DNA of 64,000 nucleotides from Gammaproteobacteria bacterium (lineage in GTDB: Bacteria > Pseudomonadota > Gammaproteobacteria > Eutrophobiales > Eutrophobiaceae): NCBI GenBank assembly GCA_965202915.1, contig OZ241847.1:2194242-2258241 (forward strand), written 5' to 3'. How positions within the stretch are numbered: the stretch's first letter is position 1; every line of letters begins with the position of its first letter. Below are positions 1,260-17,304 of this stretch, piece after piece. The translations under genes and the position numbers were made by a program. The notes under the pieces are model-generated. The model made no database searches. It worked only from the letters and a program-made list of their open reading frames with translations, and was not told the origin of the DNA.

Positions 1260-3146
1260 GTGAGTAGGCAATCAAATTTCAATGCCAGAAAACGCGGCAA
1301 CAGGAACCGACGCCGGCAAGCCAAATCGCAACCGGTTTCGCCAACAAGCTCAAAGCCATCAGCGACAATATCAGCAAGGGAAAGTATCCATATTACCCCG
1401 GCGCCGCACGGGCCGGAGTCACCCGTCTCCGCCGCGGCACCGGAAGCCGCCATCGCAACCGTATTCGCGCTGCCGGCACTATGCCTGTTAATCACCCTCA
1501 GTTACCTGCCCGCAACCTGGGCGGGGTTGGTGTGGGACGACGTCGTACTGACGATGGCCCAACCGTTGCAACATCTGTCCGGCCTATGGGATATCTGGTT
1601 CGCGCCCCGTTCCCTTTCCCAGTTTGAGGGACACTACTGGCCGCTTCTCTATACGTCTTTCTGGCTGGAGAATCGATTGTGGGGCGTCACCCCGGTCGGC
1701 TATCATATTGTCAACCTTGTACTACATGGCTTGGTCACAGTACTGCTATGGCGCCTGTTACTAAGGCTGGCCGTTCCCGGTGCCTGGTTTGCGGCGGCGG
1801 TGTTCGCGGTACATCCCCTGCACGTGGAGTCCGTGGCATGGATCATCGGACGCAAGGACGTGCTGGCCTCACTGTTTTATCTGGCCTGCGTGCTGAGTTA
1901 CCTGCATTTCATCGAGGCCCGGCGGCGCCGGTTTTATGCCGCGGCACTGGCACTGTTCATGGCGGGTCTGTTGTGCAAATCCATCCTGGTCACGCTGCCC
2001 GTATCGCTACTGATCTGGCACTGGTGGCAACAGGGGCGCGTGACGCCGGCCGACGTGCGCAGAGTGCTGCCGTTCCTGCTGCTGGGGCTGTGCGTCACGA
2101 TCGCCGACGTCTTGTTCTACAAGAGCAGGGATCCCACCGCCTTTGACTATTCAATCGTTGAACGGCTACTGATCGCGGCGCAGGCATTGTGGTTCTACCT
2201 GGGAAAACTGGTCTGGCCGACGCAACTGGCGGTCATTTACCCGCGCTGGGAGGTCGGCGTCGCCAACCCGCTGGCCTGGGGGTGTTTGATGGCCGCCTTC
2301 GCTGCGGTGGCGGCGCTGTGGTTCGGGCGCCACCGCATCGGTCGGGGGCCGCTGGCGGGTGCACTGTTCTTCGTGGTGACGCTGTCGCCGACGCTGGGCT
2401 TCGTGGACTATGGCTACATGCTGTACTCCTTTGTCGCCGACCGCTACCAATACTTGGCCGGGGCCGGTGTGATTGCAACACTGGCCGCAGCCGTAACCCT
2501 GGGCATGGGCAGACTGCCGGGCGCATACCGGCGCGGAGCGCAGGGCATGGCGGTGCTGCCGCTGGCCGCACTGGGCGTCATCACCTGGAACCAGGCGGGA
2601 ATCTACCGGGACAACTACACTTTTTACAGCCACGTCCTCTCTCTCAACCCGCAGGCCCGCTTCGCCCACCACAGTATCGGCCTGGAGTATCAAAAGCAGG
2701 GCCGCCACGAAGAGGCACTTGCCGCTTTTGAAACCGACTATCGTCTTGCCCCGGAGCAGCCGTCCCCACGGGTGCGCATGAGCAAGGCCCAGACCAGCAT
2801 CGGAACGTCGCTTGCGGCACTGGGCCGGATCCAGGAAGCGGAGGAGCACTTCCGGCGCGGGGTTGAGATCGCCCCGGACTTTCCGGGGGCCTACGATCAT
2901 CTGGGCGGGTTCCTGATCACGCACAAGCGTTACCGGGAGGCCCTCGAAGTTTTTCAAGCCGTCATCACCATAACGCCCGGCAATGCAAGGTTTCACGTCG
3001 GCCTGGGGGTCTCGCAGGCGGGCTTGGGACGGCTGGATGAGGCCTTGCAGAGCTACGAGCGGGCGCTGTTGATAGACCCCTTGCAGGAGCAGGCGCTAAG
3101 CAATCGCGCCAGCCTGTTGAAGTTCAGAGAGAGTGGCGGCGGATAG
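1260..3146 (+). CDS. GT-C fold glycosyltransferase, PMT_2/TMTC-like membrane domain fused to C-terminal TPR repeats (paralog A); probably a polyprenol-phosphate-sugar dependent mannosyltransferase
   Basis: 628 aa with multiple TM helices and the motifs LSYLPATWAGLVWDD and GHYWPLLYTSFWLE. The C-terminal third has TPR-like repeats (EALAAFE..., AYDHLGGFL..., EALQSYERALLIDP). About 75% identical over the membrane domain to ORF 9789..11648. Arg/Lys-rich N-terminal tail. Confidence 0.7.
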   Translation: MSRQSNFNARKRGNRNRRRQAKSQPVSPTSSKPSATISARESIHITPAPHGPESPVSAAAPEAAIATVFALPALCLLITLSYLPATWAGLVWDDVVLTMAQPLQHLSGLWDIWFAPRSLSQFEGHYWPLLYTSFWLENRLWGVTPVGYHIVNLVLHGLVTVLLWRLLLRLAVPGAWFAAAVFAVHPLHVESVAWIIGRKDVLASLFYLACVLSYLHFIEARRRRFYAAALALFMAGLLCKSILVTLPVSLLIWHWWQQGRVTPADVRRVLPFLLLGLCVTIADVLFYKSRDPTAFDYSIVERLLIAAQALWFYLGKLVWPTQLAVIYPRWEVGVANPLAWGCLMAAFAAVAALWFGRHRIGRGPLAGALFFVVTLSPTLGFVDYGYMLYSFVADRYQYLAGAGVIATLAAAVTLGMGRLPGAYRRGAQGMAVLPLAALGVITWNQAGIYRDNYTFYSHVLSLNPQARFAHHSIGLEYQKQGRHEEALAAFETDYRLAPEQPSPRVRMSKAQTSIGTSLAALGRIQEAEEHFRRGVEIAPDFPGAYDHLGGFLITHKRYREALEVFQAVITITPGNARFHVGLGVSQAGLGRLDEALQSYERALLIDPLQEQALSNRASLLKFRESGGG

Positions 3147-3391
3147 TGCTAAAGGGCTCAAGATAAATATATTCTGCGCGGCAAAGCGGGAACATCGGCC
3201 AATAACACCGAGGAAAGGCATCACACACCACAACCAGATCGTGGCCATTCACGCCGACCAAGAGCGAATGAACCGGCAGGTACTCACACCCCACCTCAAA
3301 AGACCAGTTGTCATTGAACGACATATTCAAGATTCCGATCTTACGATTCGGATGGTTTCGGTGATAATGGTGGGCAGGGGGGCAGGGTCAC

Positions 3392-3841
3392 TCATATTCT
3401 CTTTTGTGGCTTCTCCAGCATTTTTCCAAGCTGATTCAGTTTTCTGTTAAGAAGTTGCCCGTCTTTTAGCTGACATTCCCATATCCGCAATACTTTCCAT
3501 CCGTTGTTTTTAAGCGTCTTGTTTACCAGCCTGTCACGTTTCTTGTTGGCATATATTTTTTTAACCCAAAAATCTCTGTTGTTTTGGGGAACTTGGCCGT
3601 GCTTTGGGCAATCATGCCAGAAACATCCATCCATAAAGATCGCAAGCTTACTGTTTGGAAATACAATGTCTGGCTTGCCGAAAATCGGGTATCTGCGTCG
3701 CCATCCTATCACATGATTTCGCTTCAATATTTTAAGCAGTTTCCCTTCGGTTGATTTGTTTCCAGTAGAACGCACCTTACCCATAATCCATGAACGTTTT
3801 TCTTTTGAATAGACGTCAACCATTTTTCTTGACGTTGTCAA
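3392..3841 (-). CDS. vsr: Very-short-patch repair endonuclease (Vsr family); the start may be the internal MVDVY at 3823
   Basis: MVDVYSKEKRSWIM...FMDGCFWHDCPKHG...RDRLVNKTLKNNGWKVLRIWECQL matches the Vsr signature (FxDGCFWH ... GWxVLRxWE). Overlaps the upstream GHKL gene stop, so translationally coupled. Confidence 0.85.
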   Translation of the reverse strand: MTTSRKMVDVYSKEKRSWIMGKVRSTGNKSTEGKLLKILKRNHVIGWRRRYPIFGKPDIVFPNSKLAIFMDGCFWHDCPKHGQVPQNNRDFWVKKIYANKKRDRLVNKTLKNNGWKVLRIWECQLKDGQLLNRKLNQLGKMLEKPQKRI

Positions 3842-5477
3842 GCCTAAACAATAAAAATGAAATTAGACTTAGAATATCAAGGCAACTATTTTCTGGAAAT
3901 AATATATTTGATGTTGTCCTAGGTTCATGGTGCGTTGGATTTCTGAATGCTTGCACCAAACCAACTGAAAGAAATTGTTGACCCCTTTGCATGTTAAGTT
4001 CTGTGTCGTCGGAAAGGTCTGAAATTTGAAGTATTGGAAGCCTGGTTATTGTTGTTCTCCCTCTCTCGTTGTGTGATTCAAAACTAAAAGATTTATGCAT
4101 CAAATCAGTAGATGAATAATTAACACCAGCCTTATCTCTAATTTCCCTTTCATAAATCACCACTCCCTCTTTTGCAGCATCCAGATATCGGGCATTTTTA
4201 TAATCTTCGTACAGTCGATCCCTGATAAGCTGATGCAAATTTCTCCAATGATAATAAGGGTAAGAAGGTATAAGTTTTTTAAACTCGACAAACAGCCGAT
4301 TTGATTCAATAGTTTCTATTTCAGGAAAATCTTCAATCAGTTTTTCAGTAATAACCTCAATACTATTCTGAATTTCCTCCGGCATAGAATTTTTCCAGTC
4401 TTCCAGACCAATATCGCCAAGGCTGTTATCAACCTCGGCTATTTTCTTTTCTTTACGCTTTCTACGCCAATCCAATTGAACGAACTGGACACATTTCTCA
4501 AGATATGTATGAAGTTTGCTAGTTTGTAAATACCCCCAGTTTAGGTTTTGTCTGTTAGTGGAAATTACGTCCTCTGAAAAATCTTCTATAAAATCCACTT
4601 CCAACCATCCCGTCATATAAGAAAAGAAATGACTGGACGTGCTATCAGAAAATTGATAAGGAGATTGCACGAGTTTCCCCCGCGAAAACAAAGAAATACC
4701 CCTTGAATCAAATCTTGGTGCAATGGGCTTTTCAGGCGTAATGATCTTTCCCTGAATCTCAGACCGGTGCTCATAATCTGATTCTATGTTTGAAAAATCC
4801 TCGGGGAAATTCCAAGAAAATTCTTCACCAAATGCGGAGAAGTGCATATCATTGGACAACATTACCGGGTCTTCATCGTTACGCCTTACGGTAACGGAAA
4901 AATCTTCATCGAAAATAAAAAACCTTGCTATGCTGTTGGCAAGAAATTTTTCCGAAAAATCAGATTCTCTATTGATGTTTGTAAGTATTATTTGAGTTCC
5001 GGATTGACCATCTTCAACAATTTTGTCAATTACTTGCGGGATCATTAAATATTTCCCTCTCGTGGAGTTCATTAAATCATCCCAATCCATCGTAAAAATA
5101 TTTCTTTTTCCCTGTTGAACAGTGTTTACGGTAATTGTCCGAACAATCCCAAAGAATGAAAGCTTGCCCAAACCCTTTTTACCGATAACCTTCCTACCTC
5201 TCGGAGTCAACTCTTCTCCATCTTCTCTGCGGTTTCTCCCAATAACAAGAAATTTCTTGTCAATATCATTAAAAGACATTCCTGTTCCATTGTCCGTTAC
5301 AATAATTTCTTTTTCATTAATATCATTCAACTGCACTTCCACTTTTGTGGCATCTGCATCATATGCGTTGGCTAGCAGCTCACTTAAAACCGGAGGAAGA
5401 GTTGAGTACATACGAACTCCAAGGTGCTCTATAACTCTTGGGTCAAACTTCATCGTCAATTGATTAGATTCCAGCAT
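3816..5477 (-). CDS. GHKL-superfamily (HATPase_c_3 / MORC-MutL-like) ATPase protein, 553 aa, with a C-terminal domain of unknown function
   Basis: N box ELLANAYDADATKVEV, G1 box VTDNGTGMS and G2 box GKKGLGKLSFFG lie in the N-terminal 120 aa. The C-terminal roughly 400 aa match nothing I recognise. Low GC. Confidence 0.65.
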   Translation of the reverse strand: MLESNQLTMKFDPRVIEHLGVRMYSTLPPVLSELLANAYDADATKVEVQLNDINEKEIIVTDNGTGMSFNDIDKKFLVIGRNRREDGEELTPRGRKVIGKKGLGKLSFFGIVRTITVNTVQQGKRNIFTMDWDDLMNSTRGKYLMIPQVIDKIVEDGQSGTQIILTNINRESDFSEKFLANSIARFFIFDEDFSVTVRRNDEDPVMLSNDMHFSAFGEEFSWNFPEDFSNIESDYEHRSEIQGKIITPEKPIAPRFDSRGISLFSRGKLVQSPYQFSDSTSSHFFSYMTGWLEVDFIEDFSEDVISTNRQNLNWGYLQTSKLHTYLEKCVQFVQLDWRRKRKEKKIAEVDNSLGDIGLEDWKNSMPEEIQNSIEVITEKLIEDFPEIETIESNRLFVEFKKLIPSYPYYHWRNLHQLIRDRLYEDYKNARYLDAAKEGVVIYEREIRDKAGVNYSSTDLMHKSFSFESHNERGRTTITRLPILQISDLSDDTELNMQRGQQFLSVGLVQAFRNPTHHEPRTTSNILFPENSCLDILSLISFLLFRLDNVKKNG

Positions 5478-5489
5478 AATAAAACTATC

Positions 5490-6530
5490 TCAGCCCGAGT
5501 AAAAAGATTTCGCTATTCTGTAAGCAAGTTGCGGTGGCACTGCATTGCCTATTAGCTTGGCTGCGATCATTGAACTTTCACACGCAAAAACATAGTCTTC
5601 GCTGAACGTTTGTAGTGTTGCACCTTCTCTTAGGGACAATCCTCTGTTCTCCTCGGGATGGGCAAATCGACCATTTGAAATCCCGTTAAATCTCGTTGTA
5701 ATTGTTGAAGAGGGTTTATCCCACCTCAATCTCCCATAAACATCCCGAAAAGAATTATCTTTGCCTTTGTAGGTGTTCAATTGAAGCTCGGGGTCGTCTT
5801 TCCATGCGCTCCTTGTCCCGCCGTCTTTGGGTGTTAGCTTGAGCCGTCTCAAATTTTTTTCGGATAACGATGAAACTGTATCCATGAAATTATTTTCATC
5901 CTTATAACCGGATTGCAGAACGGGAAATCCATTATGGGTCCCTATAAATTCCTTCAATACGGATTCTTTCTCCGGTTGGGGAAGATCAATCGATTTTTTT
6001 ACCCTGGAAGCAATCAAGATAAATCTCTTTCTGCTTTGCGGAACTCCATAATACTTGGCATTGATAATATCCTCGACAATCTTATATTCTTTTTCAAGTT
6101 TCCGACAAAATTTGTCAAGCCCACTTTCCGCTTTGTTTCTTTTTATTCCCGGAACATTTTCTATAATTACATAACCCGGTTTGTAGTAACAGACAAAGCG
6201 CCAAAAATGATCAAGCAGTCCTCTGGTGTTCTCCGATGATCTTTTGTTCGTATTCAGGGTGGTCCAGTGCTGGCATGGGCTGCACCCTATAAAGATCAAA
6301 GAGTCGTCATTGCGTTTAATCCCACAATTTTTTTCCAGAAAAGTTCGTGGTGTGTCTTCTATATCTTTTAGAAAAAATTTTGTCCCCGGATGATTTGCCT
6401 CATATGTCTCTTTACAATCCTCATCCACATCTATCCCGGCAACAACCTTTACTCCGGCCATCTTTAACCCTTGGGACATGCCGCCGGCACCGCAAAAAAA
6501 ATCAACCGCTCTTAAGGATTTTTTTCTCAT
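5490..6530 (-). CDS. dcm: DNA (cytosine-5)-methyltransferase (Dcm family)
   Basis: Motif I DFFCGAGGMSQG, motif IV GCSPCQHWT (PCQ), motif VI ENVPG and motif X GNAVPPQLA. The ATGA overlap with the upstream gene indicates an operon. Confidence 0.9.
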   Translation of the reverse strand: MRKKSLRAVDFFCGAGGMSQGLKMAGVKVVAGIDVDEDCKETYEANHPGTKFFLKDIEDTPRTFLEKNCGIKRNDDSLIFIGCSPCQHWTTLNTNKRSSENTRGLLDHFWRFVCYYKPGYVIIENVPGIKRNKAESGLDKFCRKLEKEYKIVEDIINAKYYGVPQSRKRFILIASRVKKSIDLPQPEKESVLKEFIGTHNGFPVLQSGYKDENNFMDTVSSLSEKNLRRLKLTPKDGGTRSAWKDDPELQLNTYKGKDNSFRDVYGRLRWDKPSSTITTRFNGISNGRFAHPEENRGLSLREGATLQTFSEDYVFACESSMIAAKLIGNAVPPQLAYRIAKSFYSG

Positions 6531-8872
6531 TCGCCACCGCCCAAACTGGCTATTAATGTTACTATATGTGCCGCAACCGCGGACGAGGCAGCACGCACGA
6601 CAGAATCTTCGTCATATTCCTCCCGGCCATCGGAATTATCTTCGGAGTCACTGACAAGTCTCTTATACATTGCTAATGTGAGAATGCCCACCCCCACCCT
6701 GAAGCGGTGCCTGATGATCTCTCTCTTACCCTCATCTGATTCTTTGGAAATTAAGTACAAGAGATATTTATTGGCTTTGTTCACATATATGGTTAGCGTT
6801 TCTCCTCTGGACACATGACCGCCCGACTCTTCATTGTAGTTATGTTCATCCCAATATTCTTGCTCCACCCACTCAATATTCGGAAATTCCCGAGCCGGTC
6901 TCTCTTGATTGTTTGTGTCTGTTTCATCCCCGGGCGGGTTTCTTTGAGTTTCTTCCGCACTGGCAATTTTGATCATTACGTCAAAAGTCAGAGGATCTGT
7001 TCTTTCCGGGTTTGAGTCATCAAAGCCAAACTGAACGGCAATTTCATCTCCTACTTTTGCCCCCGCGGGAGTTATGACTTTTATTCGGAATTTTCCATTA
7101 CGCAGAGAACCCGAATGTGGCAATATATCAGGTGATGGGTGAATAAACTCCCCTCGGTTGGCATCTCTTATCAAATAATCATTTTGAGCGTCTGTTCTAC
7201 ATTCAATTCGTCTGTAAGAATTTATGGGAACACTCTTAACATTGCCCTCCTCCAAGTGCGTGGGAGTTAAATATGTGGGGAACAATTTCCCTTCATATTG
7301 ATCCTCACCTCCGGATGTTGCAATCTGACTGTCAACAATACTTCCAACATCAAATAGTTCTTGAAGATCCGGATTATCTTTAACAAGATTGGAAAGAAAT
7401 TCTTTATCGGTCTGCTCTTCTATTTGCTCGCTAATACGACGGTTTTTTATTTCTCTTGCATATTCCCTAAGTTCTCCGCTCCCGGCCAAGGCATCTATAA
7501 TAATTTTCTTTAGTTCTCTCGTGAGCCCTATGTCCGCCATTCTTTCCCTGTCCGATTTAAACACGGCGGCTCGCGCCGTATTATCCATGGCATTACAATC
7601 TATTTGAACAATTAAATGGTTTCTCAAATCATCCAGTCGCGCCTTCCGCAACAGACTGGCTCTGTCCGCAGATTGGGACTGACCGTTGATCGTGTAGAAC
7701 ATTCTGTATGGCTGTTTGCGCAAATAATCCTTCATTTTCTTCAACCCAAAATAAGATATTCGGATAGTCCCCAAATCCGAATTTTCAGAATTTTCAATTA
7801 CGTTTTCCAAGTCAACTTCGCTTTCCTCACTTCTTTCATCATCGGATTTGAGCACTATATTCATACCGGAAAAAGTTCTCGGTGCAATACCCTCCGCTCT
7901 AAGACCGCTCCTTGTGGGTTGAGCATCAAAATCATAAAGACGAACAGGCAAGGCACAATTTATAAGGTTGGTCGTAAGCGCATCATATAGTCCTATATCA
8001 ACCGCACGGGCACGAGGCCCTATATCGTATTCATATAACTTCACAATGCTGCCACCATTGATGACGACACCGATATCCTCTCTGCCAAAAGCCTTGATTT
8101 CATCGGTTTCAAAACAGGCAATTTCTCCGTCGGGACAAAAATACTCAACCACTGGCAAATCCTCTCCTTCTCGAACTCCTCTTACCCTTATCAAAGTCCA
8201 TCCCCATAGACCATCCGAACCGTAAGTGGTTCTTTTGGACAGAATAAACTTATACATCCCCGCCCTGATATCTGCTCGGGTACAAAAAGGTATGGATCCG
8301 GTGCTACCCATATTAAATCGACCTTGGACAAACGGAATGCCTTCCTTATTCTTTTCTCCAAGAGATAAAAAAGTTTTTCCAAAATCTGTATGATTTTGCC
8401 CCTCACCAAAATCAACTATCGTATAGTTTGGACAAATATCATTTCTCCTTCCTGTTCTCTTAATACCAATCAAAACACTTTTTTCAGCCAGATCAGTCCT
8501 TTGATTCGGGCTTAACAAAGCCAACCTGCCTTCTTGAACTTTGGGGAAAAAGTGTTTGACAGCCTCGCTCATATCTTGGGGAGCTGATTCACCATAAAAA
8601 TCTATTTGCTCTTCCTTTGCCCTGCGCATAAGGATTGCGTCAATGGAATTAATGATTAACTCTGCCAACGCACCGACTGGTTGGCTCGTTTGGACGCTCA
8701 CCCTGTCCCAATTTTTATCCGCGCCGCCGTAAGGCTTCCAATTTTCATCAGCGCTAAATTCAGGCTGGCTTTCCATGAACCGATTAACGTCGTCGGCTGA
8801 CAAAGCACCGAGAAACTTATTCGCTATTAACTTTGAAAGTGGGCTGTTGAAAAATTTTCTCGAATCATTCAT
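6527..8872 (-). CDS. Large (781 aa) protein with an N-terminal divergent GHKL ATPase-like domain and about 500 aa of unassigned C-terminal sequence; first gene of the island operon
   Basis: ALAELIINSIDA (N-box-like), IVDFGEGQ (G1-like DxGxG) and GRFNMGSTGS (G2-like GxFGxG). The remainder has no motifs I can assign. Its stop overlaps the dcm start. Confidence 0.5.
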   Translation of the reverse strand: MNDSRKFFNSPLSKLIANKFLGALSADDVNRFMESQPEFSADENWKPYGGADKNWDRVSVQTSQPVGALAELIINSIDAILMRRAKEEQIDFYGESAPQDMSEAVKHFFPKVQEGRLALLSPNQRTDLAEKSVLIGIKRTGRRNDICPNYTIVDFGEGQNHTDFGKTFLSLGEKNKEGIPFVQGRFNMGSTGSIPFCTRADIRAGMYKFILSKRTTYGSDGLWGWTLIRVRGVREGEDLPVVEYFCPDGEIACFETDEIKAFGREDIGVVINGGSIVKLYEYDIGPRARAVDIGLYDALTTNLINCALPVRLYDFDAQPTRSGLRAEGIAPRTFSGMNIVLKSDDERSEESEVDLENVIENSENSDLGTIRISYFGLKKMKDYLRKQPYRMFYTINGQSQSADRASLLRKARLDDLRNHLIVQIDCNAMDNTARAAVFKSDRERMADIGLTRELKKIIIDALAGSGELREYAREIKNRRISEQIEEQTDKEFLSNLVKDNPDLQELFDVGSIVDSQIATSGGEDQYEGKLFPTYLTPTHLEEGNVKSVPINSYRRIECRTDAQNDYLIRDANRGEFIHPSPDILPHSGSLRNGKFRIKVITPAGAKVGDEIAVQFGFDDSNPERTDPLTFDVMIKIASAEETQRNPPGDETDTNNQERPAREFPNIEWVEQEYWDEHNYNEESGGHVSRGETLTIYVNKANKYLLYLISKESDEGKREIIRHRFRVGVGILTLAMYKRLVSDSEDNSDGREEYDEDSVVRAASSAVAAHIVTLIASLGGGE

Positions 8873-8924
8873 TTATGAAAATTCACCTAGGTTTTGGTAT
8901 TTAATCAGTACATATCCATAACCG

Positions 8925-9560
8925 TTAAAAATCATTCCCGGAACCAAATGGCCACCCACTTGCGGAATAGGCCCGGATGTCATCATCGCCGGCATATTTG
9001 AACCAAAAAACCGCCGCCGGCACAACCGAACATTTGCCAAGCCGGCAGTTTTCCACCACCACCTTGAGCATGGCGTATTCGCCGTTGACTTGGCAGGCGA
9101 AAGCCAGCATATCGAATGCTACTTGATACGCCAAATGATGTCGAGTTTAATATATCCAGTTTGACCATTACGCATGTCGGTGATGTCGAGATCTTCACGC
9201 AGTGCTTTATCGCCATTGGTTAGGACCATTTTGTAACTGTATTTGTCGCCGCCCGCTAGAATCGCCGGACATACGGACTCCCCGAACCAAGAATGATAAC
9301 ATTAGCTCCCTCTACAATCCAGGTATTTCCCAACGCCTGTCCTTCCAGAACACCTATCGACCAAACCATCGGTTACTGACAGAACAACATCTACGGACGT
9401 GGCGACAGCGGTAATTGGGTTATCATGGAATCATCCGATTCACACCATCTCCAGAATATACGGGCGGCAGCATCGGACACTTCCTTGGGTATGTGTGCTA
9501 CCCGCACCTCCAATTAACACGGCCGAGTTGAGAATGTGAACCAAGTATTTCGTTGGTAAT
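8925..9560 (-). pseudogene. Degraded gene remnant of unknown family with multiple frameshifts, adjacent to the island
   Basis: Protein-like segments sit in three different minus-strand frames: ...VWSIGVLEGQALGNTWIVEGANVIILGSGSPYV..., ...KMVLTNGDKALREDLDITDMRNGQTGYIKLDIIW and AYQVAFDMLAFACQVNGEYAMLKVVVENCRLGKCSVVPAAVFWFKYAGDDD... They are separated by +1/-1 shifts and in-frame stops. Confidence 0.3.
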
Positions 9561-9671
9561 TACCCCACATCCTTCGACTTATCAGGTAATGAGACAAGAC
9601 TCGGCAAGGTTACGGGACTTCCCCGGTCACCGTCTGTGCACAATCTTATAATGCTTTTCTGCGAAAATTAT

Positions 9672-9710
9672 GAGGATTGTGTAAAATCCTCTCTTGTATA
9701 GGATTAGGAT
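9672..9710. promoter_or_regulatory. Perfect 7-bp inverted repeat GAGGATT-N6-AATCCTC followed by tandem AGGATTAGGAT, in the promoter region of TMTC-like paralog B; possible operator
   Basis: Read directly at 9672-9691 and 9700-9710; about 80 bp upstream of the 9789 start. Confidence 0.3.
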
Positions 9711-9788
9711 ACCCTCTTGCCACACTTCAGACTGAAATCTGCCTTCTCCTCAAGAAAGGAGTGGCGCAAGGTGAACAGATAATCGGAT

Positions 9789-11648
9789 ATGGCGGCCCGA
9801 AAAAACCGAAACAAGGCCCGGCGCAGGCAAATGAAGCTGCAAACCACCGCCAGGCGCCCCGGCACGGTGCGTAGCCGGACCGGCCCCGTACCCATCAAAT
9901 CGTCGCCGGGCGGGTTGCAATCGCTTTTTTCCGGGCTCAAGCGGAGCGTACTTCACGGGGACCCGATCCCACCCGCACTCGCGGCCACGGCGCTGTGGCT
10001 GCTGATACTCATCAGTTACCTGCCCGCGACCTGGGCCGGTTTCGTGTGGGACGACTTCGCGTTCACGGAGGCCGAACAGGTACTGCGCCCATCCGGTCTT
10101 TGGGATATCTGGTTCAAGCCGCACTCGCTGCAGAATGAAGGCCATTACTGGCCGCTCCTCTATACGACCTTCTGGCTGGAGCACAAGTTGTGGGGGCTGG
10201 ACCCGACCGGTTATCATATCGTCAACCTGCTGCTGCACGGGTTGACCACGCTGTTGTTGTGGCGCCTGCTGCTGCGGCTGGCCGTGCCGGGCGCCTGGTT
10301 CGCGGCGGCGGTGTTCGCCGTGCACCCCCTGCACGTGGAGTCGGTGGCATGGGTTATCGGACGCAAGGACGTGCTGGCGGGGCTGTTCTCCGTGGCCTGC
10401 GTGCTGAGCTATCTGCGTTTCGTGGAAGCTGGTCGCCGCGCACGCTATACGCACTACTTTCGGGCACTGGCGCTGTTCGTGGCGGGACTGTTGAGCAAAT
10501 CCATTGTCGTCACCCTGCCGGTGTCGCTGTTGATCTGGCACTGGTGGAAGCAGGGTCGCGTAGCCGTGACCGACGCACTGAGGACGCTGCCGTTCCTGCT
10601 GCTGGGGCTCGGCATCACGATCATCGACTGGTGGTACTACAAGGACCGGGAAGAGATTGTCCTGGAGGACTACTCGTTGATCGAGCAGACGCTGAACGCG
10701 GCGCACGCGCTGTGGTTCTACGTTGGCAAACTGGTCTGGCCGGCGGAACTGGCAGTCATCTACCCGCGCTGGGAAATCAACGTCAGCGAGCCACTGGCCT
10801 GGGCGTATCTGGTCACCGCCGTCGCGGTGGTGTGGCTGCTGTGGTTCTACCGCGACCGCATTGGCCGGGGGCCGCTGGCGGGGGTGCTGTTCTTCGTGGT
10901 GACGCTATCACCGACCCTGGGGTTCGTCGAGTACGGTTTCATGCAGTTCTCGCTGGTCGCCGACCGCTATCAGTACCTGGCCGGGATCGGAGTGACGGCG
11001 GGCCTCGTGGCCGCCGCGGCCCGCGTTGCAGGCCGGCTGTCGGGTACGCCGGCGAGGGGCGTACAGGCCGCGGCGGTGCTGCTGCTGGTCGTGCTGGGAA
11101 CCATCAGTTGGAACCAGGCGGGCATCTACCGCGACAACTTCACGTTCTACCAGCATATCATCGCTCTCAACCCGCAGGCCAGGAACGCCTGGTACAACCT
11201 TGGCAGAGAGTATTCCATGCAGGGCCGCACGCAGGATGCGCTGGCCGCGTATCTCACCGCCGGCGAGCAGCGCCCCGACCACGTCTGGGCGCATATCGGC
11301 GCCGGGCAGATGGCCGCGGAACTGGGAAGGCTCGCCGAGGCGGAGATGTACCTGCAACGCGCGCTTGCGGTTGACCCGAGTTTCCCGGAAGCCCTCAACA
11401 ATATGGGAGCGCTGCGGCTCAGACAAAAACGCTACAGCGAGGCGCTCGAACTCTTTGAGACCCTGATTGAGATGCAGCCCGAGTACGCCAAGGTTTATTC
11501 TGGCATAGGCGTGGCCCTGGCCGGACTCAGGCGGTTTGAAGAGGCGTTGCGGAGTTTTGACCGCGCGCTTGAACTGGACCCGTCACTGGAAGAGGCGCGG
11601 GTCAACCGCGAGCACGTATTGCGGAACTCCAAAAGCGAGAGCAGGTAA
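9789..11648 (+). CDS. GT-C fold glycosyltransferase, PMT_2/TMTC-like membrane domain fused to TPR repeats (paralog B)
   Basis: 619 aa with ISYLPATWAGFVWDD, GHYWPLLYTTFWLE and HPLHVESVAWVIGRKDVLAG. The C-terminal TPR-like repeats include NAWYNLGREYSMQGRTQDALAAY and EALNNMGALRLRQKRYSEALELFE. Very high GC. Its stop overlaps the start of the next gene (TAATG). Confidence 0.7.
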   Translation: MAARKNRNKARRRQMKLQTTARRPGTVRSRTGPVPIKSSPGGLQSLFSGLKRSVLHGDPIPPALAATALWLLILISYLPATWAGFVWDDFAFTEAEQVLRPSGLWDIWFKPHSLQNEGHYWPLLYTTFWLEHKLWGLDPTGYHIVNLLLHGLTTLLLWRLLLRLAVPGAWFAAAVFAVHPLHVESVAWVIGRKDVLAGLFSVACVLSYLRFVEAGRRARYTHYFRALALFVAGLLSKSIVVTLPVSLLIWHWWKQGRVAVTDALRTLPFLLLGLGITIIDWWYYKDREEIVLEDYSLIEQTLNAAHALWFYVGKLVWPAELAVIYPRWEINVSEPLAWAYLVTAVAVVWLLWFYRDRIGRGPLAGVLFFVVTLSPTLGFVEYGFMQFSLVADRYQYLAGIGVTAGLVAAAARVAGRLSGTPARGVQAAAVLLLVVLGTISWNQAGIYRDNFTFYQHIIALNPQARNAWYNLGREYSMQGRTQDALAAYLTAGEQRPDHVWAHIGAGQMAAELGRLAEAEMYLQRALAVDPSFPEALNNMGALRLRQKRYSEALELFETLIEMQPEYAKVYSGIGVALAGLRRFEEALRSFDRALELDPSLEEARVNREHVLRNSKSESR

Positions 11649-13414
11649 TGGCGAAACGGAAAAACCCCCGCCCCGCCACTCGCCGGCGCCGACAACCTGG
11701 GGCAGCGGCGCCGACAACGGCAACGATGCCCTGGCGGTGGCGCGCGGGCGACGCCTTATTTGCCGCCGACCGCCCGCGGCTCGCCGGCGACGGCGAACAC
11801 TGGACGTATTTCTGGCCGCTGCTGGGCGCGGCCCTGCTGCTGCGCGCTGCCATCGCCCTGTGGGGTGACTTTGTGCTGCATCCGGACGAGATCATGCAAT
11901 ACCTGGAGCCGGCCCACTATGTGGCCTTCGGCAATGGCGTCCTCTACTGGGAATATCTCCACGGCGCACGCAGCTGGCTGATCCCGGGCGCGATCGCCGG
12001 CGTGCTGAAGGCGCTGGATGGCTTGGGGCTGGCGCAGCCGGCCATCTATATCGCCGTGGTGAAACTGTTGTTCTGCCTGCTGTCGCTGTCGGTGCCGTGG
12101 GCCATGTACCGCTTCACGCAAATCACGGTCAACGAGCGATCTGCTCGGCTGGCGCTGATCTTCGGCTGCTTCTGGTACGAACTGGCGGCGCTGGCGCACA
12201 AACCCTTCACCGAATTGTTCAGCACTTCCATTTTCATGGTCGTGCTCGCTCTGTCCGTGGGCAGGGAAGCGGAAAGACCCGCCAGGCTGTTTGCCATCGG
12301 CCTGCTGGCGGCACTCAGCGGTGCGGTGCGCCTGCAGTACGCACCCGTGGCGTTGCTGCTGTTGTTGCTGCGCTCGGTATCCCTGCGCAACGGCGTTGCC
12401 GGGCTGGTGTCGTTATGGGCGGGCGCCGGGCTGCTGACGCTGCTAGTGGGTATCTTCGAATGGCAGACCTGGGGGGCGCCGTTTCATTCCTACCTGAGCA
12501 ACTTCTTTATCAATCTCGCCATTGACCCCGCACGCGCCGGTGAATCAAGCCGATGGCTTCTGTTGGGGCAGTTGGCCGCGGCCAGCGGCGGCATGGCACT
12601 GATCGCCTTTGCCGCTGCGCTGCCCAGGGGGCGGCGGCATCTGCTCATCCTGGTGACGAGCGCGGTGATACTCGTCCTGCACCTGCTCCCGGAGCATCGC
12701 GAATACCGCTTCATCCACGTCCTGATCCCGTGCTGGTTGATGCTGCTGGCGGCCTGGATCGCGCGCTGGGGCGACGGATTGTCCGGCGAACGAGGCCGGA
12801 TATCCGCACTGGCGCGGCGCTGGGGCGCGGCGGCGGTGCTGGCCTTCGGCATCCCAGCCCTACTCAATGCGTTTCCCTGGCAGAGCCGGGTGTACCAGAG
12901 TTTCTCCGTGGAAAAACCGGTGTACTACTTGCGCAATCAGGACCCGATATTTGAGATCATGTCTTTCCTGGCCGCCCAGGACGACGTGCACGGAGCTCTC
13001 TACCATACCCGGGAATACAACGCATACTTCAGCACTGGCGGCTATTACTACCTGCACCACGACGTCCCTTTCTATACCGCGCAAGACACCTGGCAAACCA
13101 TCAGGGAACGGCACCCGGCGGTGCCTCAGGAATCGTTGGTTTCCCATATCGTGACCGAGGCCGACGGCCCCGCCATCCAGGGGTTCGAACGACTGCTCCG
13201 GCGTGGAAACCTGGCGCTGTGGCGGCGCCGGGACAACGACAGTGCAGTCCCCCGCTGGCGCGAGCACGTGATCAAGGTAAGCCATGCGGACCTAAACGAC
13301 CTGGTGAGCAGAACCATGCGGCGCCTGAACGCCTCTTCCATGCTCGACCTTTTCGTAGCCGATGACTTGTACTGGGTGGAGGCGCCACCGTTGTTTGAGT
13401 CGGCGGATGAATAA
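11648..13414 (+). CDS. GT22-family (PigB/Alg9/Alg12-like) GT-C mannosyltransferase
   Basis: Loop-1 signature HPDEIMQYLEPAHYVAFGNGVLYWEYLHGARSW matches the GT22 consensus (PDEhWQslE...G.LTWEW..RLRSY). Multi-TM. Translationally coupled to paralog B. Arg-rich N-terminal tail. Confidence 0.6.
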   Translation: MAKRKNPRPATRRRRQPGAAAPTTATMPWRWRAGDALFAADRPRLAGDGEHWTYFWPLLGAALLLRAAIALWGDFVLHPDEIMQYLEPAHYVAFGNGVLYWEYLHGARSWLIPGAIAGVLKALDGLGLAQPAIYIAVVKLLFCLLSLSVPWAMYRFTQITVNERSARLALIFGCFWYELAALAHKPFTELFSTSIFMVVLALSVGREAERPARLFAIGLLAALSGAVRLQYAPVALLLLLLRSVSLRNGVAGLVSLWAGAGLLTLLVGIFEWQTWGAPFHSYLSNFFINLAIDPARAGESSRWLLLGQLAAASGGMALIAFAAALPRGRRHLLILVTSAVILVLHLLPEHREYRFIHVLIPCWLMLLAAWIARWGDGLSGERGRISALARRWGAAAVLAFGIPALLNAFPWQSRVYQSFSVEKPVYYLRNQDPIFEIMSFLAAQDDVHGALYHTREYNAYFSTGGYYYLHHDVPFYTAQDTWQTIRERHPAVPQESLVSHIVTEADGPAIQGFERLLRRGNLALWRRRDNDSAVPRWREHVIKVSHADLNDLVSRTMRRLNASSMLDLFVADDLYWVEAPPLFESADE

Positions 13415-13654
13415 AAGTTTGTGGTCACGATCTTACACGGGCAGCCCGATGCCGATACCGTTCGCAGGTGTGGCCCACCGGGCCAGGTGGTCGGCGATGC
13501 TTTCCGACCCCATGGAGCCCCGCGCGGCCCCGGAATAGTCTTCGCAACCGCTCATTGGTTTGCCGGCGACAATATGGCACACTCTCCGGCAGTTTGATTG
13601 TAATGTTGATCCTGTCTTTTGATTTGCTTTTTCATTGCTTTAGGAGGCCCGCCC

Positions 13655-14404
13655 ATGTCCAAAAACCTAAGCGACTTTTCAACCCTGAGCCTGGACTGCT
13701 ATGGCACACTCATTGACTGGGAGACTGGCATTTGGGACGCGCTACAGCCCCTGATCCGGCGATCCGGACGAGACGACGTCGTGCGCCGCCAAGGACTCGA
13801 GGCGTTCGCCCGATTTGAAAATGCCCGCGAAATGGAGACACCGGAGCTGCCCTACCCGGAGATTTTGCAACGAACCCACGCCGACGTGGCGGCCTACCTG
13901 GGAATGACCACCTCGGTGGAACTGGACCGCGAGTTTGCCTGCTCCATCGCCCACTGGCCGGCCTTTGCCGACACCGCCGACGCGCTGCGCCGCCTGCGGA
14001 AGCACTATAAACTGGTGATCCTGTCCAACGTCGACCGGGCCGGATTCGCCGCCTCGGCGACCAAGCTCGGCGTCGCCTTTGACGCCGCCTACACAGCGGA
14101 AGATATCCGCTCCTATAAACCCGCCGCCGCCAACTTCCACTACCTGATCGAACATCTCCAGGCCGATCTCGGCGTTAAGCGCGAAGCCATCCTGCACACC
14201 GCCCAGAGCCTGTTCCACGACCACGCACCGGCCAACGCCTTCGACCTCGCCAACGTCTGGATCGACCGCCAGGGGCTGTCGCATAGCGACAACTGGGGCG
14301 CCACCGCCAGGCTCGACAAGCGCCCCGACGTGGACTTCCTGTTCCCGACCCTGGCGGCGATGGCGGACGCAGTGGAAGGGGAGGTCGAGCCGCCCCAGGG
14401 TTGA
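13655..14404 (+). CDS. HAD-superfamily hydrolase, haloacid dehalogenase type II-like
   Basis: N-terminal LSLDCYGTLIDWE (DxYGTL nucleophile motif), ILSNVDRAG and a C-terminal WIDRQG block. AGGAGG lies 8 nt upstream of the ATG at 13655. Confidence 0.75.
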   Translation: MSKNLSDFSTLSLDCYGTLIDWETGIWDALQPLIRRSGRDDVVRRQGLEAFARFENAREMETPELPYPEILQRTHADVAAYLGMTTSVELDREFACSIAHWPAFADTADALRRLRKHYKLVILSNVDRAGFAASATKLGVAFDAAYTAEDIRSYKPAAANFHYLIEHLQADLGVKREAILHTAQSLFHDHAPANAFDLANVWIDRQGLSHSDNWGATARLDKRPDVDFLFPTLAAMADAVEGEVEPPQG

Positions 14405-14712: not shown

Positions 14713-15643
14713 TTACCCGTTCGCCATTGTGGAGACGGTCGTGTATCTGCGCGCGAGTGCCGCACGAGAGACACGGTGTTCGTCGACCAGTGGCGGGATT
14801 CCCCGATGTTGCCGTATTACTTGAGCGGTCAACTCATTTTCTGCTGCGGCCTGGGACACTACACCAGACTGCCCGGTGACCTTGTATAGGGTGATATCCT
14901 CGCGCACTTGCTCCAACAGATAGAATTCCATCCGGGCATGGTTGAAAGCGAAGCGATCTCCTGACCGGTTGTTGAACACCAGCTTGGAGAGCGCAATGTT
15001 GACGACTACCAGCGCGGCCAAAATTGTCAGTATCCAGTGATTAGACAGCCCTAGCCTGCAAACCACGGCAAACCCCTTGAGATGGGTCGGATTTCGACCC
15101 TGTGCGTAAACCAGCGTCAGCAGCAGAATCAAAAGAAAAAGCAGCACGTGTAAGGAATACACCTTCTGGATAATGGACTGCGACCAGAATAGCTTGGAAA
15201 ACCCGTAGGCGAAGCCGGCCATGTAGCCGCCGAGGCGGCCGCCCGTCAGGTGGACCGCCACCAGATATAGCACCGCGCAGGCCGCCGCGCCCAAAAGGGC
15301 GCTCAATATGTTGCCGGCCAGCGGGCGCGAAAGCAACGGCAGGTGGGCGAACGGGAAGCACAACATGCTGTACAGCGGGTAACCCGGCGGGTGCACTGGT
15401 TGGCCGTAGTGGCAAATCAGGTTGAAGATCGCTGCGTCTTCGTAGGTGACGACACGGGGCATCGTGGCCAGATATACGATAAAAAGCCCGGTAAACACGG
15501 CCAGAGGGGGGGCAGCCCTGTCCTTCGATGTTATCGCGTAATGAAAACAAGCTAACCGTAGCGGCGTTGCGCACCCTGTCTTGGGACTGGGGGCGCACCT
15601 TACCCGAACGGGTACGGTTTTTTCTTTTACTCTTTCTGCGCAT
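14713..15643 (-). pseudogene. Frameshifted and truncated DUF2723/TMEM260-like GT-C glycosyltransferase gene
   Basis: PRVVTYEDAAIFNLICHYGQPVHPPGYPLYSMLCF matches the DUF2723 N-terminal signature (GDsgEF...HPPGYPLY). The Arg/Lys-rich start MRRKSKRKNRTRSGKVRP is in a different frame (ORF 15041..15676). Total length is about 300 aa versus more than 600 aa expected, and the C-terminal part is low complexity. Confidence 0.5.
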
Positions 15644-15975
15644 GGTGCCTACCCAACTACAGTCCCTTTTTGGCAAATACTATCACGTCTGATGCTGTAC
15701 CCGCTCGAATCGGCTCGCCTGAACGGGAGGGCGGAATGATTGTAATGTCGACTATGATGTCGCGTGTTTCATCCGGGCGGTTTTGTTGAATCTCGTCTTT
15801 TATGATTTGTATGTCCAGCCGGATCAACGGTTTATTCAGGTCAAAGATTTTCGCCAATTGGTAGCAAACGTCGCCGTCAAAGAATAAATCTTTGCGGTCT
15901 GTCTCAACCTCATATTGGGGGTTATAATGGTCTTGAGTTCGTTTTGCTTGGCACAATCGTAATATTTACTCAGTA

Positions 15976-16266
15976 GTGGACCAATCCACCGCTGTTTTTT
16001 CTTTGATAATACTCTGCACTTTTTTGATTGGATATAGCGAGTTCAAGGATGTGTTTGACTCACTGCTAAAAGACAACCCTATCTTCCACATGTCCCGACA
16101 AGCGGCCCTATTCAACCAAAAACTGGCTGACACGTCCCCGCATCGGGGTTGGCTACCCAAATACAACGCCATCCGACCTCATAAAGGAGTTGGACTCAAA
16201 ACACCCGTATGGATTACTATCGATAACAACAAAATTTATACAATATGTGGTGGACCCCATACATAG
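15976..16266 (+). mobile_element. IS transposase C-terminal fragment (DDE integrase core end, IS3/IS481-like); remnant
   Basis: FNQKLADTSPHRGWLPKYNAIRPHKGVGLKTPVW matches the conserved W..YN..RPH..LG..TP tail of IS3/IS481 transposases. There is no intact upstream catalytic region. Confidence 0.5.
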
Positions 16267-16329
16267 AGTAGTAGAAATATCGCTATGTGGGAGTATATAT
16301 GCAGATAAGGCATAGGGAGTTTCCTAATA

Positions 16330-17304
16330 ATGAAATTAGATGAATTAAATAAATACAGAAGGCTAATACTCATTATTAGTGTTATTGCCTTTTCTCTTTT
16401 GTTAATTGGTGTGTCTGAGGTCTTTCTAGCCAGATATATGGGCCTGGGTGAGCCTGTACTTTATGACTCATCTCCAATATACGGGTATAGGCCATTGCCT
16501 GGAAAAACATACTCTAGATTTTATGGAAAGGAGGTAAAGTTTAATAATCTGGGGCTAAGGTCTGAATCTGATTGGAACGAAGATATTGAAGATAAAATAC
16601 TTTTTCTTGGTGATTCCGTAACTTATGGAGGTTCTTATATTAGCAATACGGAATTGTTTTCTTATCTATCTGTAAAAAATCTGGGAAACAATTACGTTAG
16701 CGGGAATGCCGGGGTAAATGCATGGGGGGTTGAAAATATATATGGTCTTATTGTCGAGTCAGGGTTCATGCCCGCGGGAATTTACGTCACAGTTATTCCA
16801 GAATCTGATTTTTACAGAGGCTTGACTAGAATACACGGGCTCCCTTTCTATAATGAGGATCCAAAATATGCTTTTCAGGAGCTATTTGATTATTTTATTA
16901 TTAATAAAAATAATAATAAGCGATACAAAGGTTGGCAACACTATGCTGATAAAAACACAAAGGCTTTCGTTATAGAAAAAGCAGTGAAAAAACTAAAGAT
17001 GATCGATGTATTGTTAAAGGAAAAGGGGTATAAGCACTTAATCTTTATTTCTCCCAAAAAAAGGCAAGTGATAAAACATTTGGAGAAAGATCTTCTGAAA
17101 AAAGATCCATTGGTTAAAAAATTTCTAACGAAACATGGGCTGTTTCCTTTCTATATAAAAGATGAAATAAATAAGCTTGATTTATTGAGGGAGGAAATAG
17201 AGGGTATCTATCATGGCGACCATGACAACATACATCTTTCAGAAAAGGGCCATAGGCTCTGGGCAAGGATTATAACAAATAAGTTACAAGAGTTACTGCT
17301 TTAG
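16330..17304 (+). CDS. Membrane-anchored SGNH/GDSL-family hydrolase (esterase/acyl-transferase-like)
   Basis: N-terminal TM helix (LILIISVIAFSLLLIGV) and GDSL block I ILFLGDSVTYGG. Very low GC with AT-rich codons, distinct from its neighbours. Confidence 0.55.
   Translation: MKLDELNKYRRLILIISVIAFSLLLIGVSEVFLARYMGLGEPVLYDSSPIYGYRPLPGKTYSRFYGKEVKFNNLGLRSESDWNEDIEDKILFLGDSVTYGGSYISNTELFSYLSVKNLGNNYVSGNAGVNAWGVENIYGLIVESGFMPAGIYVTVIPESDFYRGLTRIHGLPFYNEDPKYAFQELFDYFIINKNNNKRYKGWQHYADKNTKAFVIEKAVKKLKMIDVLLKEKGYKHLIFISPKKRQVIKHLEKDLLKKDPLVKKFLTKHGLFPFYIKDEINKLDLLREEIEGIYHGDHDNIHLSEKGHRLWARIITNKLQELLL

Follow-up and report, generated by a model that had tools for sequence, protein, structure and literature searches.

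A diverged, partly decayed copy of a probable periplasmic mannosylation island in a gammaproteobacterial genome

Introduction

Animals have three pathways of protein O-mannosylation, and TMTC and TMEM260 have recently been recognised as the enzymes of two of them. The ALG glycosyltransferases that work in the lumen of the endoplasmic reticulum (ER), including ALG9 and ALG12, were reportedly described in a 2016 evolutionary study as apparently eukaryote-only. ALG9, ALG12 and PIG-B belong to CAZy family GT22 and use dolichyl-phosphate-mannose as the donor. TMTC1-4 (CAZy GT105) are ER protein O-mannosyltransferases. The beta-sandwich domains that are modified in animals are those of cadherins for the TMTCs and IPT domains for TMEM260 (PMC10214176). 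Here, we describe a cluster of glycosyltransferase genes of the GT-C fold class at the left of a 64,000-nt stretch of contig OZ241847.1 from a gammaproteobacterium. The whole stretch is referred to as the window. It carries two TMTC-like genes, A and B, a GT22 gene, and remnants of TMEM260-like and PMT_2-type genes. We hold, with moderate confidence, that what is seen here is a periplasmic mannosylation island, horizontally mobile and shared by sponge symbionts of different phyla, in a diverged and partly decayed copy; it would be fed by polyprenyl-phosphate-mannose and probably acts on proteins. Related loci are designated L002-L005, L008 and L010-L013.

Two described bacterial arrangements are the closest in overall logic. 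In actinobacterial O-mannosylation, a family 2 glycosyltransferase (GT2), Ppm1, makes polyprenyl-phosphate-mannose and a GT-C enzyme, Pmt (GT39), mannosylates exported proteins, and we propose the same division of labour here. However, the GT-C enzymes of the present system are TMTC-like, TMEM260-like and GT22 rather than GT39, the hosts are Gram-negative, there are multiple paralogues with tetratricopeptide repeats (TPRs), and the genes lie in one mobile island. The sister loci resemble the GtrA/GtrB/GtrX and ArnC/ArnT systems in encoding a GT2 synthase, a GtrA-type module and periplasm-facing GT-C enzymes together. They differ in that synthase and GtrA-type module form one protein, as in the archaeal dolichol-phosphate-mannose synthase (DPMS), and in that one synthase would serve up to about eight GT-C enzymes from four or five families; the window lacks a synthase.

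The component families, and the principle of a GT2 lipid-sugar synthase paired with GT-C enzymes, are known already. Literature searches found no characterised bacterial TMTC-like, DUF2723 or GT22 enzyme, and no account of the cluster in sponge symbionts. Nor did we find a published account of TMTC-like arrays, GT22, TMEM260-like and PIG-V-like genes, a DPMS-like synthase and ManC in one island, of the very recent exchange of such an island between Nitrospirales and Gammaproteobacteria, or of the surface proteins embedded in it.

Gene content and composition of the cluster

The original prediction, made from the sequence of the window, was of a horizontally acquired cluster of eukaryote-type GT-C mannosyltransferases. 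The genes and remnants identified are as follows.

1260-3146 (+): paralogue A, 628 aa, TMTC-like GT-C membrane domain (about 11 helices) followed by C-terminal TPR repeats
3149-9788 (-): low-GC restriction-modification insertion, GC 37-44 %
9789-11648 (+): paralogue B, 619 aa, TMTC-like GT-C membrane domain followed by TPR repeats
11648-13414 (+): GT22 (ALG9/ALG12/PIG-B family) mannosyltransferase homologue, 588 aa, PF03901
14533-14886 (+): PMT_2/PMT-type GT-C remnant, tblastn 45 % identity, E 6e-24
14713-15643 (-): TMEM260-like (DUF2723) GT-C pseudogene, PF11028 63.6 bits

The two TMTC-like paralogues, the GT22 gene with its HPDE...WEY loop and the nearby TMEM260/DUF2723 remnant were all part of that prediction and were recovered here. 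The label eukaryote-type is not appropriate, as the TMTC-like, GT22 and DUF2723 families are large in bacteria. The GT22 type alone has 3,418 representatives (50 %-identity clusters) at E <=1e-3 and 956 at <=1e-30, and full-length prokaryotic TMTC homologues had already been noted, and called uncharacterised (PMC7801869).

The predicted GC content of 70-80 % was also too high. The whole-gene GC of A, B, the GT22 gene and a HAD-type gene that follows them is 62-64 %, and only the GC of third codon positions (GC3) reaches 75-82 %. In the window copies of nine housekeeping genes (UvrA, NusA, IF-2, TruB, DnaB, Alr, RadA, MaeB and SdhA), GC is 48-57 % and GC3 49-67 %, and the island genes differ clearly from this backbone in composition. 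Horizontal acquisition is supported both by this difference and by the presence of island copies that are 95-98 % identical at the DNA level in different phyla.

Conservation and transfer of the A-B-GT22 operon

With the GT22 protein as query, four loci (L002-L005) were retrieved from chromosome-level metagenome-assembled genomes (MAGs). Together with two TMTC-like arrays, L010 and L011, they are listed here with their hosts or genomes and the gene sets that set them apart.

L002, Ca. Porifericomitaceae, Gammaproteobacteria: four TMTC-like paralogues, GT22, an intact TMEM260-like gene (747 aa), a PMT_2/PMT gene (591 aa) and a GT2-GtrA gene (369 aa), then an insertion sequence (IS) transposase gene
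L003, Ca. Poriferihabitaceae, Gammaproteobacteria
L004, Ca. Poriferihabitaceae, Gammaproteobacteria: A-B-GT22 only, with ManC nearby
L005, Nitrospirales
L010, a 2.99-Mb genome: at least seven TMTC-like genes, a TMEM260-like gene and a DPMS-like gene
L011, a Nitrospira MAG: a TMTC-like array around a DPMS-like gene

The family names of the L002-L004 hosts refer to sponges. The order A-type, B-type, GT22 is the same in the window and in L002-L005, and in all five the stop codon of B and the start codon of the GT22 gene overlap as TAATG, with one shared base. A-B-GT22 is a conserved operon. The original prediction had seen the TAATG overlap in the window and taken it to imply translational coupling and a shared pathway, and its recurrence, with the gene order, in four related loci supports a shared pathway. 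Distant GT22 homologues (40-45 % identity) showed no linkage to TMTC-like genes, and the linkage is therefore specific to one clade.

The DNA of L004, from an Arenicellales chromosome, and that of L005, from a Nitrospirales chromosome, is 98.4 % identical over 5.4 kb, and this match is confined to A-B-GT22. Synonymous divergence between the two is 0.03-0.06, and their island proteins share 90 % clusters. Therefore, the island moved very recently between Nitrospirales and Gammaproteobacteria. Between L002 and L005, identity is approximately 95 % in A, in B-GT22 and in another 5.2 kb. The window copy is more diverged, with 75-77 % DNA identity to all of these sister copies; its A protein is 73 % identical to the product of L002 4794-6623 and its B protein 72 % identical to that of L002 8022-9887. 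The ratio of non-synonymous to synonymous divergence (dN/dS) was 0.18-0.37 throughout all comparisons, including 0.27 for A, 0.30 for B and 0.32 for GT22 of the window against their orthologues, and the island genes are under purifying selection.

In L010 and L011, five to eight TMTC-like paralogues surround one DPMS-like and one TMEM260-like gene, and no GT22 gene was called in either locus. Both also have an adjoining, conserved gene for a 550-aa alpha/beta-hydrolase-like protein with faint matches to PAF-AH and chlorophyllase.

Paralogues A and B are TMTC homologues

Paralogues A and B are 62 % identical over 550 residues. TPR families were matched in both, in A with E values down to 1e-22. 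The search for TMTC-like homologues reached saturation, with all 120 hits listed at 60 % identity or more. For the membrane domains, Pfam PMT_2 scored 23.4 bits on A, below the cut-off of 26.1, and did not match B, though in a search at E up to 10, in which no other Pfam family was found on the membrane domains, it matched 11 of the 12 island paralogues. Pfam PMT (PF02366) matched neither A nor B.

The membrane domain of B aligned with animal TMTC1-4 in BLASTP, with 29-40 % local identity and E values of 5e-20 to 4e-13. A profile of 54 bacterial membrane domains matched a TMTC alignment (seven sequences, from the supplement of PMC7801869) over 368 columns in hhalign, with a probability of 99.8 % and E 2.3e-30. 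The same profile gave no significant match to ArnT (5EZM) or Pmt1 (6P25), each used as a single-sequence control. Searches of the membrane domain against PDB sequences with phmmer and with a profile in hmmsearch gave no matches. Full-length B matched only TPR proteins among PDB sequences, and TPR proteins likewise swamped the Foldseek search of full-length B against the PDB, which is uninformative for the membrane domain. As judged from these alignments, the membrane domains of A and B are homologues of TMTC and not of ArnT or PMT, and assignment to ArnT/GT83 or an unrelated family, the outcome that the original prediction had named as speaking against it, was not seen.

The motifs defined for TMTCs in PMC7801869 were located in B by profile alignment. 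Like TMTC1-4, the bacterial proteins have the paired Asp of the catalytic motif M1 in the first extracytoplasmic loop, FVxDD in TMTC and FVWDD here, with D88 and D89 invariant in the 54 homologues and the 12 island paralogues. M3 (RxD within FAVHPxHTEAV..GRAD) corresponds to FAVHPLHVESVAWVIGRKD, and the pattern FAVHPxHxExV..GRxD is conserved. M7 (ERxxY) corresponds to ADRYQY, conserved as (E/D)RxxY, and HxVNxxLH is conserved in the bacterial-TMTC alignment. Other motifs are kept in part. For M2 (SHKSYRP in TMTC), B has EGHYWPL, in which the His and the Pro-Leu are retained but the Lys and Arg are not. M4 (KE(T/Q)xxT) is KSIVVT, with the Lys and Thr retained and Glu replaced by Ser, and M5 (DW) aligns with RW, with an invariant Trp and Asp replaced by Arg. 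D280-W281 had been considered as the DW motif and was rejected after the profile alignment. The invariant residues of B include D88, D89, H119, R192/D194, K237 and R393.

Because the DNPA motif is absent, KE and DW are replaced by KS and RW, and the TMTC_DUF1736 domain (PF08409) was not matched, we place A and B in a distinct bacterial subfamily of TMTC homologues and have not filed them as TMTC orthologues. Multiple paralogues are a further feature shared with the animal proteins. The bacterial proteins also differ in being predicted to act in the periplasm, from a polyprenyl- rather than dolichyl-phosphate donor, and in their arrangement in operons with GT22 and donor synthase genes.

An AlphaFold model of B (pLDDT 84.9, pTM 0.82) and the charge pattern of the protein fit 11 membrane helices with Arg or Lys in every predicted cytoplasmic loop, and the conserved acidic and polar motifs fall in predicted outside loops. 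The first 61 residues include 15 Lys or Arg and one acidic residue. The predicted topology, with a cytoplasmic N-terminus and with the TPR domain and the catalytic loops on the periplasmic side, corresponds to that of the TMTCs, in which an 11-helix GT-C domain precedes a non-cytoplasmic C-terminal TPR domain. The original proposal that TPR and catalytic loops share the periplasmic side agrees with this predicted topology.

Between paralogues, the membrane domains are 63-72 % identical, whereas the TPR domains are only 42-52 % identical. Between orthologues, the TPR domains are 71-75 % identical. This is the pattern expected if each paralogue selects its own clients via its TPR domain.

The database protein for B has 605 aa and begins 14 codons 3' of the ATG at 9789, at position 9831. 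The longer reading frame from 9789 is probably the correct one, because orthologues keep the N-terminal sequence MA(A/T)RKNRNKARRRQ.

The GT22 protein resembles ALG9 and ALG12

The GT22 protein matched PF03901 with 91.6 bits (cut-off 23.8) over residues 62-392 and contains the loop motif HPDE...YLEP...WEY. Its family profile matches ALG9 (9s6s) and ALG12 (9s6t). The invariant D80, in the first helix of the first loop, aligns with position D82 of human ALG9, which is the catalytic base (PMC13503287); the PDB chain carries D82A. The motifs YxEPxH, WEY and HKEYRF of the eukaryotic enzymes are present as YLEPAH, WEY and HREYRF. In a Foldseek search of the PDB with an AlphaFold model (pLDDT 86.2), the top three hits were ALG9 (two entries) and ALG12, with TM-scores of 0.57-0.69, ahead of ArnT. 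A C-terminal alpha/beta non-membrane domain (residues 420-588 approximately) is found here as in ALG9 and ALG12. However, identity to ALG9 and ALG12 is only 13-14 %, the bacterial gene is coupled to a TMTC-like gene, and no pathway for Dol-PP-GlcNAc2Man or glycosylphosphatidylinositol is evident.

Donor supply in sister loci

DPMS-like genes, encoding a GT2 enzyme joined to a GtrA-type membrane domain, were found in L002, L003, L005, L010, L011, L012 and L013. In L002, the synthase has 369 aa, with a GT2 part joined to a GtrA_DPMS_TM domain, and the 591-aa PMT_2/PMT gene directly adjoins it. The closest solved relative of these GT2-GtrA proteins is the Pyrococcus furiosus dolichol-phosphate-mannose synthase 5MLZ (E 1e-46; ArnC, E 6e-16). 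A gene for ManC (GDP-mannose pyrophosphorylase / phosphomannose isomerase) overlaps a TMTC-like gene in L012, and in L003 and L004 ManC homologues closely precede the operon. In L013, a PIG-V-like GT-C gene (PF04188, Mannosyl_trans2; 15175-16410, +) lies between an autotransporter gene and the DPMS-like gene; this is a further GT-C family whose characterised members are eukaryotic. The synthase, ManC and PIG-V-like neighbours point to polyprenyl-phosphate-linked mannose as the donor. A candidate for the polyprenol-phosphate-mannose synthase that the original prediction had called for is thus present in sister islands in the form of the 5MLZ-like gene, and ManC is found there too, but neither lies in the window.

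Surface proteins embedded in sister loci

Genes for surface proteins are embedded in some of the sister loci at two kinds of position.

L005 11958-14750 (-): 930-aa autotransporter with two He_PIG Ig-like domains and one PKD domain, directly after GT22
L013 12055-14826 (+): homologous autotransporter (40 % identity over 728 aa), likewise directly after GT22
L008 6632-9763 (-) and L012 4537-7629 (-): orthologous proteins of approximately 1,030 aa with Cadherin-like, Calx-beta and fn3 domains, between the TMTC-like gene and GT22

Ser and Thr together make up 16-21 % of the embedded surface proteins. The parallel between their domains and the beta-sandwich substrates of the animal enzymes suggests that the autotransporters and cadherin-like proteins are candidate clients for glycosylation. 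L012 14469-16383 (+) encodes a further embedded surface or secreted beta-sandwich protein.

Proposed mechanism and its main alternative

The sequences show the gene content, the homologies, the synteny, the transfer between phyla and the purifying selection; in the following scheme, which sugar is used, what accepts it, how the steps follow one another and how the proteins lie in the membrane are proposed. In a complete island, ManC would make GDP-mannose, and the GT2 enzyme fused to the GtrA-type membrane domain would load the mannose onto polyprenyl phosphate at the cytoplasmic face, from where the lipid-linked mannose would reach the periplasmic face. There, the TMTC-like paralogues would grip their clients with the periplasmic TPR domains and begin the O-mannosylation of exported proteins, while the TMEM260-like and PMT_2-like enzymes would do the same for other clients. 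The GT22 enzyme, kept in a fixed ratio with B by the TAATG overlap, would add one more alpha-linked mannose in the manner of ALG9, ALG12 and PIG-B, and the PIG-V-like enzyme, where present, would likewise extend the glycan. The clients are likely to be surface beta-sandwich proteins of the autotransporter and cadherin-like/fn3 types found in sister islands. In the window, where only A, B and GT22 are intact, the donor would have to be made by genes at other places in the genome; otherwise, the pathway may be in the course of being lost.

Several observations weigh against this scheme. Literature searches found no bacterial member of these families with a tested activity. The sugar specificity of the GT2 synthase is not fixed by its sequence. 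No DPMS-like gene (searched with tblastn), ManC or candidate client lies within the 64-kb window, and no DPMS-like protein from the same 2.49-Mb contig was among the 120 matches listed. A link to surface proteins is seen in only two independent arrangements, and L010 and L011 lack one. In human TMTCs, the Glu of KE and the Asp of DW have been modelled as metal ligands, and in the bacterial proteins these motifs read KS and RW; in addition, none of the 12 island paralogues matched TMTC_DUF1736 (PF08409) even at E up to 10, and the DNPA motif of the loop between transmembrane helices 7 and 8 is absent; therefore, the chemistry of the bacterial TMTC-like proteins may differ from that of the TMTCs. 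Finally, characterised GT22 enzymes all act on lipid-linked glycans and not on protein-bound mannose (PMC13503287), and the reaction catalysed by GT22 could be part of a glycolipid branch.

The last point leads to the main rival explanation, which we consider unlikely, namely that the island modifies envelope lipids or builds a lipoglycan. Mannose would then be added to lipid A, to the lipopolysaccharide (LPS) core, to a glycolipid or to a lipid-linked oligomannan, with parallels in ArnC/ArnT, in Francisella FlmF/FlmK and in the mycobacterial synthesis of phosphatidylinositol mannosides, lipomannan and lipoarabinomannan, and the TPRs would dock onto machinery for envelope assembly or export. 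Among the PMT_2-type enzymes of Gram-negative bacteria, the best known are those that modify lipid A, and a PMT_2-type gene adjoins the DPMS-like gene in L002. The TPR domains have weak scores against the polysaccharide-export TPR proteins PgaA, BcsC and PrsT, and the loci without an embedded surface protein, L010 and L011, are also in keeping with a lipid acceptor, as are the acceptors of the characterised GT22 enzymes. However, A and B have membrane domains that can be aligned over their whole length with the TMTC protein O-mannosyltransferases but not with ArnT, and two to eight paralogues that differ mainly in their TPRs fit many protein clients better than a single lipid acceptor. For the third family, too, the characterised relative, TMEM260, is a protein O-mannosyltransferase (PMC10214176). 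On this balance, protein mannosylation remains the reading we prefer.

Decay of the window copy

The window does not hold a complete system, as two of its GT-C genes are pseudogenes and neither a donor synthase nor ManC is encoded within its 64 kb. The TMEM260-like gene is a pseudogene. Its 261-aa open reading frame (ORF; 14713-15498, -) matched PF11028 with 63.6 bits (cut-off 24.2), and its basic N-terminus (MRRKSKRKNRTR...) sits in a different frame. Compared with the 747-aa orthologue in L002, the remnant keeps residues 59-247 (72 % identity) and 423-497 (43 %), while residues 248-422 and 498-747 are missing; the gene has a frameshift after the basic leader, an internal deletion and a 3' truncation. 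Intact orthologues of 696-747 aa are present in sister islands. The resemblance to animal TMEM260, the IPT-domain O-mannosyltransferase, thus consists of the PF11028 match and of these intact orthologues, though the window copy is a pseudogene.

The PMT_2 piece covers residues 401-521 of the 591-aa orthologue and is inverted relative to L002. From its tblastn match it is a fourth GT-C remnant, one that had not been reported earlier.

The 6.6 kb between A and B, which the original prediction had passed over, is foreign DNA, with a GC content of 37-44 % and with its genes coded on the opposite strand. In addition to approximately 0.9 kb of non-coding DNA, the stretch at 3149-9788 contains the following.

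3392-3841 (-): Vsr
3816-5477 (-): BbrUII/HgiDII-like HATPase restriction enzyme
5490-6530 (-): Dcm C5-methyltransferase
6527-8872 (-): 781-aa ORF, the end of which overlaps the start of the Dcm gene

The 781-aa ORF had no match in Pfam, NCBIfam or PADLOC and may be an undescribed specificity or defence partner. The spacer between A and B is only approximately 40-70 bp in L003-L005, and it is precisely at this spacer that the DNA match between the window and the sister islands breaks off (3148 | 9980), which identifies the cassette as an insertion. As read from these alignments, it has split a contiguous A-B-GT22 operon and is not part of the glycosylation system. Around it, target-site duplications or terminal repeats were represented only by short matches that are possible at chance level. 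In L002, an HNH gene (6745-7503, -) is inserted at the same spot, and mobile defence-type genes have thus entered the A-B intergenic region on separate occasions, as a restriction-modification cassette in the window and as an HNH endonuclease gene in L002.

These findings raise a second alternative, that the cluster in the window is a non-functional relic in which A, B and GT22 were orphaned by the insertion of the cassette and by loss of the synthase, TMEM260-like and PMT_2 genes. The two pseudogenised GT-C genes, the rearrangement of the PMT_2 piece, the foreign opposite-strand DNA that parts A from B-GT22, and the missing donor and client genes, with no close DPMS-like homologue from the same contig among the matches listed, would all fit such a relic. 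Nevertheless, we regard it as improbable. A, B and GT22 are full-length. None of the residues that are invariant in the sets of 54 and 58 homologues has been lost, the catalytic acids included, which speaks for proteins that are still working, and the dN/dS of 0.27-0.32 for these genes also speaks against a relic. L004 holds only A-B-GT22 and a nearby ManC, so that the three-gene core persists alone, and in the present genome the donor genes may lie elsewhere in the 2.49-Mb chromosome.

Significance

Bacterial homologues of TMTC, TMEM260 and ALG9 sit together in operons, to which sister loci add a donor synthase, ManC and plausible clients. The compact gene sets of L005, L012 and L013 could be used in a heterologous host to test the function of bacterial TMTC-like, TMEM260-like and GT22 proteins, with a bearing on the O-mannosylation of surface proteins in Gram-negative bacteria and on the origin of the animal pathways. 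The island is also a candidate host-interaction trait of sponge symbionts. A much stronger version can be formulated, in which this is a self-contained mobile protein O-mannosylation system that decorates Ig- and cadherin-like surface proteins, has its animal counterparts in the TMTC and TMEM260 pathways, of which it may be the evolutionary source, and is exchanged among sponge symbionts for the sake of host-like mannose glycans. We think this version doubtful. The window itself has a more modest place, as a diverged and partly eroded copy broken by a restriction-modification cassette.

Other features of the window

At least three base compositions are interspersed in the leftmost 17 kb of the window. 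The gene that follows GT22 is of uncertain membership.

13619-14404 (+): HAD type II-like hydrolase, TIGR01428 119.8 bits (cut-off 125.4)

Its GC content of 63 % is island-like, but it had no tblastn counterpart in L002-L005 and it is therefore uncertain whether it is part of the island. Just past the pseudogene debris, a 324-aa ORF at 16330-17304 (+) has 35 % GC and a weak GDSL/SGNH match. In a scan of the window for promoters and terminators, the counts were not above those for shuffled sequence; one 10/12 promoter-like site lies upstream of A, at 1169-1197. An Rfam scan of the window found a single tRNA-Met and nothing else.

A basic leader, M-x-(R/K)-K-x-R-N-(K/R)-x-RRRQ, opens the TMTC-like, GT22 and TMEM260-like proteins, which belong to three unrelated GT-C families. 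In the window, it is encoded at 1260-1340, 9789-9840, 11648-11700 and 15580-15643 (-). It is also found in L002 and in distant homologues, including some from other phyla, and is absent from the PMT_2-type and DPMS-like proteins. The leader could be a common cytoplasmic signal, or merely a strong determinant of a cytoplasmic N-terminus.

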